Below are positions 7,975-9,780 of a DNA stretch of 64,000 nt, one piece after another. The first letter of the stretch is position 1, and each line of letters starts with the position of its first letter. The notes below the pieces were generated by a model that searched no databases, had not been told where the DNA came from, and worked only from the letters and a program-made list of their open reading frames with translations. The translations under genes and the position numbers were made by a program. The stretch comes from Patescibacteria group bacterium (GTDB lineage Bacteria > Patescibacteriota > WWE3 > 2-01-FULL-39-13), in assembly GCA_048499955.1 (NCBI GenBank), contig JASNYX010000003.1:21785-85784 (forward strand), read 5' to 3'.

Positions 7975-8184
7975 ATGGATGGGATCTCAGAAGTTAAAGA
8001 TAAAATAAATATTGTTGATTAGTTATTGGCGGGTACGTGCAGTTAAAAACGAACCGGAAAAAAATTTCCGAGGGTTGGCGTCTTTTTTTCATAAAGAAAA
8101 AATCCCTCTTTTATCGTTACCGAAGAACTTCAAAGATACAAATGTTTTGGATGTGGCAAAAGCGGAGATATTTTCAATTTCATA
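7975..8184 (+). pseudogene. dnaG: Degenerate 5' portion of dnaG (zinc-binding domain) interrupted by in-frame TAG (8020) and TAA (8044, 8092)
   Basis: In one frame the translation [62 protein letters not shown] aligns co-linearly with the primase N-terminus (..DIVD..KKQG.N...CPFH.EKTPSF......HCFGCG). The first Cys/His ligand pair is lost. Confidence 0.5.
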
Positions 8185-9780
8185 ATGGATTATGAAGGTC
8201 TCGAATTCGGTGAAGCCTTAAAACTTCTTGCAGAAAAAGCTGGTGTGGAATTGAAAGTTGATCCTCAGTTTAAACTTGCAAAAAGTTCTACGGATAACAT
8301 TGAAAGAGTTAACAATCTTGCCGCTACTTTCTATCATAATCTTTTAATGAATCATGATTATGGAAAAATCAGTCGCGCATATTTAAAAAAAAGAAATCTA
8401 ACTCCTGAAATAATTCGTGAATTTAAATTGGGGTACTCTCCGAACTCATGGGATAGTTTGTCTAAAACTTTAATTAAACGGGAATATAAGCCTGACGATT
8501 TAGTTAAGGCCGGGTTAGCAAGATATAAAAAGAACGGCACTGAAGTTTATGATGTTTTCAGAACAAGATTAATATTTCCGTTGGTTGATTATTTAGGTAA
8601 AACGGTAGGATTTGCCGGTAGGTCATTGCTTGAAGGGCAGATTCCAAAATATTTAAATACACAAGAAACGCCTCTTTATCATAAAGAAAAATTTCTATAC
8701 GGTTTGCATTTATCAAAAAAGCATATACATGAAAAAGATGCTGCCATTATTGTCGAAGGTTATTTCGATATGATTTCCCTTTATCAGCACGGATTTAAAA
8801 ACGTAGTTGCTTCAAGTGGAACAGCTTTGACATCAGGTCAACTTGGTTTGATCAAAAGGCTTAGCACAAACATTATTCTGGTGTTCGATGGCGATGCCGC
8901 GGGAGTTCAGGCTGCAATTAGAGGAATTGATGTCGTTCAGAATGCCGGATTAAATTTGAAAATCGTAACTCTTCCCTCAGATGTGAAAGATCCCGATGAA
9001 CTAATGCAAAAAGAGCCGATGCGGTTTTATGAATGTCTCAATAGAGCTTTGCCTGTTTGGGATTTTTATTTTTCGTATGTGTCAAAAACATATAAGTTTG
9101 ATGATGTGTATGAAAAGAAGAGAGCCTCAGATTTTCTCTTAGGAATTATTAGTCAGATAAGCGATGAGGTTTTGAAAAATCAGTATATTAAGAAATTCGC
9201 CACCATGTTCGAAGTTTCTGAGGAGGCGGCAGTTGCACAATTAAACAAGACTCCGGATAAAGTGGTTACAAGATTCGAAAGGCAGGAATCTGAGAGAGCC
9301 GAAGGCAAAACGACCGAAAAAGCTGTTTTAAGCCCTGATTTATACCTAATGTATTTGCTTTTTCACTCTCCTGCAGGCGATATTTCTGAGAATATCTCTA
9401 GGATTGAGCCGGAATACCTTGGGCAGGAAGAGCTAAAAGAGCTGTACAAGGCATTTGAGGAACATTTATCGTCCGGGCAAGAAAGTGTTGATATTAAAGC
9501 ATTTTATGATAAACTTCCTGAATATAATCCCGATATCCATAAAATGTTCGAAAGAATATATCTAGTTGATATATCAACTAATCTAGAGGATCATTCCGTA
9601 TTTGAATCGGAATTTCGCATTACCCTACGAAGGGTACAGTTCAACTATTTGAATAGAAAAATCAAAGAAAAATCAAAAGAACTAAAAATGGCGGAAAATT
9701 CCAAGAATCTCGATCTCTCTAAAAATCTTCAAGACGAAATAAATATATATATAGGCAAATTGAAAGAACTCAAAGCTTAG
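8185..9780 (+). CDS. dnaG: DNA primase, from the first stop-free Met (end of zinc-binding domain, RNA-polymerase core, TOPRIM, C-terminal helicase-binding region)
   Basis: [11 protein letters not shown] lies immediately upstream in the same frame. TOPRIM EGYFD...VFDGD motifs. Directly upstream of rpoD, the usual operon arrangement. Confidence 0.8.
   Translation: MDYEGLEFGEALKLLAEKAGVELKVDPQFKLAKSSTDNIERVNNLAATFYHNLLMNHDYGKISRAYLKKRNLTPEIIREFKLGYSPNSWDSLSKTLIKREYKPDDLVKAGLARYKKNGTEVYDVFRTRLIFPLVDYLGKTVGFAGRSLLEGQIPKYLNTQETPLYHKEKFLYGLHLSKKHIHEKDAAIIVEGYFDMISLYQHGFKNVVASSGTALTSGQLGLIKRLSTNIILVFDGDAAGVQAAIRGIDVVQNAGLNLKIVTLPSDVKDPDELMQKEPMRFYECLNRALPVWDFYFSYVSKTYKFDDVYEKKRASDFLLGIISQISDEVLKNQYIKKFATMFEVSEEAAVAQLNKTPDKVVTRFERQESERAEGKTTEKAVLSPDLYLMYLLFHSPAGDISENISRIEPEYLGQEELKELYKAFEEHLSSGQESVDIKAFYDKLPEYNPDIHKMFERIYLVDISTNLEDHSVFESEFRITLRRVQFNYLNRKIKEKSKELKMAENSKNLDLSKNLQDEINIYIGKLKELKA

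Follow-up and report, generated by a model that had tools for sequence, protein, structure and literature searches.

The dnaG gene of this Patescibacteria-like MAG raises the question of whether a bacterium is living with a primase that has lost its zinc-binding domain, or whether an ordinary gene has been misrepresented in one assembly. An earlier note on the same DNA had described a primase N-terminus with three in-frame stop codons and without its first pair of zinc ligands, and offered three ways in which this could have arisen: recent decay with reinitiation of translation at Met 8185, local read-through of the stops, or assembly error. Here we weigh these possibilities with reference to the window, by which we mean the whole stretch of 64,000 nucleotides (64 kb) that was analysed, and to related sequences in public assemblies.

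Structure of the dnaG locus

The features of the locus are as follows, where L001 and L002 are contigs from two close relatives that are described below:

7940..7968, + strand: promoter-like site, TTGCGA-17 nt-TAGAAT, with 9/12 matches; both hexamers are kept in L001
7975..8019, + strand: dnaG codons 1-15, the native primase start, undamaged; 0 nt differences from L001/L002 over 7975-8021
8020..8103, + strand: garbled patch within the CHC2 zinc-ribbon coding region; 5 gap blocks and 11 substitutions relative to the intact relatives
8104..8184, + strand: second half of the zinc ribbon, in frame 1 again and retaining the second ligand pair, CFGC
8185..9780, + strand: remainder of dnaG, 531 open codons, comprising the end of the zinc ribbon, the RNA polymerase core (DNAG_N and Toprim) and the DnaB-binding domain
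9908..11173, + strand: rpoD (sigma-70), intact, which follows dnaG in the conserved dnaG-rpoD arrangement

Much of what the earlier note had read from this region is accurate. The ATG at 7975 and the frame 1 translation quoted from it are both exact, the stop codons TAG 8020, TAA 8044 and TAA 8092 are all present in that frame, and the promoter proposed to begin with TTGCGA is indeed a promoter-like site. The second ligand pair, CFGCG, is intact, with the CFGC codons at 8143-8154, and the 531-codon ORF downstream is clean, as had been claimed; it carries the DNAG_N domain (PF08275, 128.5 bits, profile positions 2-127 of 128), Toprim (PF13155 at 79.4 bits and PF13662 at 63.7 bits) and the DnaB-binding domain (PF10410, 35.7 bits with a cut-off of 20.6). 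The ORF at 9908-11173 contains sigma-70 regions 1.1, 1.2, 2, 3 and 4, and L001 and L002 have dnaG and rpoD in this order too. Loss of the first zinc ligand was also correctly reported: there is no Cys codon in any frame at the position of CPFH, which reads GCG TCT TTT TTT CAT, the His codon being in frame 2 only and the Cys codon (TGT) having become GCG, so that the first ligand is encoded in no frame.

The locus can be set beside the standard bacterial arrangement, in which DnaG (PF01807, PF08275, Toprim and PF10410) is paired with rpoD. In the window nothing is missing from the polymerase core, Toprim or DnaB-binding domains, and rpoD follows directly, but the zinc ribbon is not one ORF and its first Cys codon is gone, while the closest relatives are ordinary proteins of 599-616 aa. 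The CHC2 domain is not contiguous with the core in a single ORF and becomes recognisable only after four frame corrections, and the complete set of four ligands (C-x2-H ... C-x2-C) is absent from the window, where the relatives have CPFH.

The -10 box of the promoter-like site stops 6 nt short of the dnaG ATG at 7975, which is a leaderless-type arrangement, and 6 nt is the modal spacing between -10 box and start among genes in the window. A -10-like hexamer (TAnWWT) occurs 5-9 nt before the start in 14 of 44 window genes, with 2.0 expected; examples are found upstream of the starts at 1129(-), 16203, 32684, 45834(-), 54119, 58349, 62401 and 7975. Shine-Dalgarno-like motifs at the usual distance were seen in 2 of 43 window genes, and gene starts in the window look leaderless. 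Directly 5' of dnaG there is an ORF of 234 aa (7218-7922, +) without a Pfam match; a comparison with 5.8 billion protein clusters returned its own NCBI record only, and with partial copies on L001 and L002 it is a lineage-restricted orphan.

Changes of reading frame across the patch

The zinc-ribbon alignment itself is not as the earlier note had described it. Rather than a single frame that aligns residue for residue, the similarity to the CHC2 zinc ribbon of DnaG over 8020-8103 moves through three frames in the order 1, 3, 1, 2, 1, with frame 3 contributing VIGGYVQL, frame 1 KRTG and frame 2 KNFRGLASFFHKEK. A frameshift-aware dynamic programme, in which the first 68 residues of an intact relative were aligned with positions 7975-8184 of the window, scored 286 compared with 234 for the best single frame; in 200 shuffles of the patch the equivalent gain was 8.4 +/- 9.8 with a maximum of 45, compared with the 52 observed. 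The path of this alignment stays in frame 1 to 8019, skips 2 nt (8020-21) and proceeds with VIGGYVQL; 1 nt is skipped (8046) ahead of KRTG and a further 1 nt (8059) ahead of KNFRGLAS(F)FHKEK, and a 2-nt codon (8102-03) then leads into PSFIVTEE..., in frame 1 once more. With its frames corrected, the peptide matches the Pfam profile PF01807 (Zn_ribbon_DnaG) at 111 bits (E = 2e-32) over profile positions 6-95 of 98.

Judged from this alignment, the apparent in-frame stops are by-products of frameshifts and not nonsense codons in the aligned frame. At 8044 the TAA comes from TTA-AAA (Leu-Lys) and at 8092 from CAT-AAA (His-Lys), both read in the wrong frame; the TAG at 8020 arises from a +2 insertion after GATTA. 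The puzzle of a frame that is preserved without being open was a real one, and it is explained by the indels in the patch; frame 1 resumes at 8104 because they sum to +6 nt.

Intact relatives and the extent of the damage

When the 531-aa ORF was compared with 5.8 billion protein clusters there was a single match at 99% identity, P0001, a protein of 599 aa that includes the zinc ribbon. The ORF equates to residues 69-599 of P0001 at that level of identity, and its start corresponds to Met69; all other matches are at most 47% identical and belong to Patescibacteria or Saccharibacteria-type MAGs. The P0001 cluster has three members, namely P0001 itself (Logan SRR24682844), P0121 (599 aa, Logan SRR23332755) and P0122 (531 aa, NCBI). 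The last of these is found on a 116,378-bp NCBI contig and is identical in sequence to the window ORF at 8185-9780; it is presumably the window's own public record. The Logan contigs of the other two, L001 (SRR24682844) and L002 (SRR23332755), are one base apart, share ~96% DNA identity with the window over 2.6 and 3.3 kb, and both encode an uninterrupted 599-aa DnaG with CPFH. An uninterrupted dnaG with CPFH in close relatives was an observation that the earlier note had said would count against its reading, and P0001 and P0121 provide it. With 4% DNA divergence these intact copies represent another strain, and are no proof of what the window strain carries.

The three-way DNA alignment of the window with these relatives covers 3.28 kb, that is, the end of the upstream gene, two intergenic spacers, dnaG and 1.08 kb of rpoD. 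Relative to both, the patch has gap blocks of +2 at 8022-23, +1 at 8050, +1 at 8058 (in an A7 run), +3 at 8077-79 and -1 at 8101/8102. These amount to 8 columns in 5 blocks with a net change of +6, and in other alignments two of the blocks are split to give up to 7 events. Every one of the 8 indel columns in the 3.28 kb alignment falls within 8022-8101 (Fisher's exact p = 3e-10), and in the 3.28 kb shared with L002 there are no indels outside the patch. The 11 patch substitutions all lie between 8024 and 8103, so 19 of ~83 patch columns are altered. Homopolymers have been lengthened within the patch, from AAAGAA to A7, from CCTTTT to CT7 and from A5 to A6, and it contains four runs of at least 5 nt, compared with a frequency of 0.74 per 100 nt across the window. 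No duplicate of the patch that might have acted as a donor for gene conversion was found in the window, where no match exceeded 16 nt.

The window strain itself was encountered on one other contig, L089 (Logan SRR21762701), which encodes the exact rpoD protein and has DNA that is 100.000% identical to the window over 2781 nt (9693-12473). It follows from this identity that the strain has been sampled independently and that the window assembly is accurate over 9693-12473; L089 starts at 9693, and so stops short of the patch. Exact look-ups of the 531-aa ORF, P0122, the upstream 234-aa ORF and two patch ORFs brought no other contig that would provide a same-strain assembly across the patch. Proteins cut by contig ends are apparently missing from the protein database, which puts fragmentary contigs beyond the reach of protein look-up. 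Scanning genome contigs with P0001 produced nothing above 46% identity and metagenome contigs nothing above 38%; neither collection includes the source genome. The N-terminal 140 aa matched only short proteins of at most 54% identity and no same-species fragments. The three SRA run accessions had no matches in a literature search.

Other DnaG records that are split or lack the zinc ribbon

Among the top 120 DnaG matches only two, P0090 and P0069, lack a zinc ribbon besides the window. P0069 begins 52 nt from a contig end. P0090 (L090:270-370; GCA_964345015.1, CAYFPR010000108.1), the DnaG of a Patescibacteria-type MAG, was called at 513 aa without the zinc finger, and a run of N occupies the first half of its zinc-ribbon region directly before ...WHCFGCDKGGD; L090 thus adds another instance of assembly difficulty in that portion of dnaG. 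We considered whether DnaG without a zinc ribbon might be a recurring natural form, and rejected this, both candidates in the top 120 being assembly truncations. Short stand-alone CHC2 zinc-ribbon proteins of 108-193 aa were also seen (P0134, P0141, P0177 and P0216), on contigs of up to 1.7 Mb and from several sources; these could be genuinely split primases, or the result of frameshifts or truncated calls.

Gene content of the window

The coding density of the window is 91%. When ~55 ORFs across the 64-kb window were compared with Pfam, no conserved gene besides dnaG was split or truncated, and full-length matches were obtained for PGK, UvrD, FtsK, MetRS, P-type ATPase, RmuC and RpoD. The same survey found no second primase in the 64-kb window, and an Rfam scan of the window found tRNAs only, of which there are four (Ser-GCT, Ser-CGA, Arg-GCG and Asn-GTT).

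Several other features of the window deserve a brief description. A compact metal-handling cluster at 734-4759 (-) comprises a metal-sensing repressor of the CsoR type, a P-type ATPase with an HMA domain, a membrane protein combining DsbD_2 and HMA, and a cupredoxin-like protein. Neighbouring ORFs at 23875-25574 (-) have weak matches to cohesin (E = 1.6e-5) and dockerin (E = 2e-4, below the Pfam cut-off), which hint at surface pairing of the cohesin-dockerin type in a small-genome bacterium. Two very large ORFs, at 26844-29129 and 46945-49995 (both -), encode 761 aa without a Pfam match and 1016 aa in which nothing but a weak DnaJ domain at the C-terminus (27.9 bits) is recognisable. Finally, a protein of 430 aa (54119-55411, +) combines an AAA+ domain with a Lon lid domain and is without the Lon protease domain; the ORFs next to it, at 55652-56260 (+) and 55500-55949 (-), have no Pfam match.

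A probable local assembly error

In our judgement the patch reflects a local error of assembly or consensus in a single MAG contig, to which we would give a probability of roughly three in four. The locus would then consist of an ordinary bacterial dnaG followed by rpoD in a Patescibacteria-like MAG, in which a consensus stretch of ~80 nt without read support (8020-8103) had been garbled by 5-7 indels of 1-3 nt and 11 substitutions. The garbling would account for the three apparent stops in the original frame and for the disappearance of the CPFH Cys, and the +6 sum of the indels would bring the frame back at 8104, while the organism itself would make a normal primase of ~599 aa from the ATG at 7975.

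An artefact is favoured because the damage is sharply bounded, indel-rich and homopolymer-biased, because no gene but dnaG is broken in the 64 kb, because the two other DnaG without zinc ribbons in the top 120 are assembly truncations, and because one error per 64 kb fits the error rate reported for CPR MAGs. The damage is denser, and contains more indels, than gradual mutation could produce. Local assembly errors are documented in short-read MAGs, with 13 in one CPR genome of 1.13 Mb, or ~1 per 87 kb (Chen et al. 2020, Genome Res 30:315; PMC7111523). The window resembles these cases in having a short, deviant consensus that breaks a gene in an otherwise accurate contig, and the anomaly, sharply localised as it is, is missing from independent assemblies of close relatives. 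It differs in that the published errors are defined by there being no perfectly matching read, whereas the window case was recognised by comparison of assemblies. Two observations run counter to an artefact: the contig is exact where it can be checked (the 2781 nt of L089), and dense clusters of indels are unusual for Illumina-type data. Assembly error was the last of the three options in the earlier note, and it becomes the best explanation; the make-up of the indels, their confinement to the patch and the intact relatives are direct results, and the artefact is inferred. A majority genotype that lacks the zinc-binding domain is unlikely.

Alternative explanations

The patch might instead be a real and very recent lesion, one complex event or burst of slippage having destroyed the first zinc knuckle in this genotype; we regard this as possible, though unlikely. 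It would have left either a 531-aa primase that is translated from Met 8185 and lacks the zinc-binding domain, or a crippled genotype at an evolutionary dead end that assembly had captured by chance. The stops and indels do, after all, stand in the record of an assembly that is otherwise exact where checkable, and several of the changes are in or beside A/T runs, where natural slippage occurs. However, 5-7 indels and 11 substitutions crowded into ~80 nt, when the other 3.2 kb has not a single indel, fit no ordinary mutational process, the zinc-ribbon codons beside the patch are untouched, and the patch is present in one assembly only. The downstream ORF is clean and is publicly annotated as a 531-aa protein, and with Shine-Dalgarno motifs in only 2/43 genes, the absence of one before 8185 does not alone preclude initiation there; on the other hand, there is no -10 box 5-9 nt before the ATG at 8185, common as these are in the window, while the ATG at 7975 has one at 6 nt, and the window has no second primase. 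If the lesion were real, it would be doubtful whether the 531-aa remainder is expressed. It is improbable that the patch is real and that the strain lives with a DnaG that lacks the whole zinc-binding domain and is translated from Met 8185. The decay with reinitiation at Met 8185 that the earlier note had envisaged survives in this recent form; as a gradual process it is contradicted by the conserved flanks of the patch.

Had selection been relaxed and the zinc-binding domain gradually become a pseudogene, stops, frameshifts and the loss of a zinc ligand would likewise be expected, and all of these are present, yet we consider this course of events very improbable. Compared with L002, the dnaG core has pS of 0.178 and pN of 0.0048 (pN/pS ~0.03), and rpoD has pS of 0.111 and pN of 0.0012; the differences outside the patch look like normal divergence between strains under purifying selection. 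The 126 nt of zinc-ribbon codons that flank the patch conform to this pattern: the 5' flank (7975-8021) has 0 differences, and the 3' flank (8104-8184) has 6 relative to L002, five being synonymous and one nonsynonymous. At pS = 0.178 neutral drift should have given several nonsynonymous changes in these flanks, the patch has far too many indels relative to its substitutions for gradual decay, and the promoter and start codon are unchanged. A pseudogene that formed gradually should have pN/pS near 1 and dispersed lesions, and was rejected; here the flanks are clean and all lesions are within ~80 nt. Because the codons flanking the patch are conserved, it follows that selection has maintained the zinc ribbon through practically the entire divergence of the strains.

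A diversity-generating retroelement was also considered and rejected, since there are indels among the changes, the changes are not adenine-specific, and the Pfam survey revealed no reverse transcriptase.

Recoding that restores a full-length DnaG, whether by read-through or reassignment of stops, programmed frameshifting or transcriptional slippage, is scarcely credible: 3/4 of the frame changes are in or beside A5-A7 runs and the net change in length is a multiple of three, but a full-length product would take four distinct changes of frame in the space of 85 nt, no slippery site is present at the first of them (GATTA|GT|TATT), dnaG is simply in frame in the 96%-identical relatives and the shift site is not conserved there, and the corrected reading still has Ala-Ser-Phe-Phe-His for Cys-Pro-Phe-His and so lacks the first Cys ligand. 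Frameshifted genes are rescued by transcriptional slippage in the reduced genomes of endosymbionts, and the runs known to drive efficient slippage are longer than the A5-A7 runs of the patch. The window shares with those genomes an essential gene with indels at A/T homopolymers in a small-genome bacterium; it differs in that its runs are 5-7 nt, one shift is outside a homopolymer, substitutions have removed a zinc ligand and the relatives are unshifted. Programmed frameshifting or slippage was rejected, L001 and L002 needing no shift at all. As for the stops, TAA, TAG and TGA end 34, 17 and 9 of the window ORFs of at least 100 aa, which upholds the objection to global reassignment that the earlier note had based on TAA and TAG; no suppressor tRNA is present among the four tRNAs of the 64-kb window, and no other conserved gene is interrupted in the 64 kb covered. 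With all stops in use as terminators and the interruptions being frameshifts, reassignment and suppression were rejected, and the option of local read-through is discarded with them.

Implications

The window carries an ordinary dnaG-rpoD locus with a frameshift patch of ~80 nt confined to one assembly, and the patch is most likely not a biological feature. This has consequences for data quality, in that a 531-aa 'primase' without a zinc finger now stands in the public record, and truncated calls of this kind propagate into protein databases. Where apparent in-frame stops are met in a conserved domain, the first test should be for compensating frameshifts by comparison with near-identical relatives.

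Were a zinc-less DnaG nonetheless to prove true, lagging-strand priming would have to proceed without the domain that is thought to select initiation sites, or by another route encoded outside the window. A real lesion would mean that a free-living or episymbiotic bacterium has a DnaG without its zinc-binding domain, which would challenge the supposed indispensability of that domain; the evidence presented here points the opposite way.
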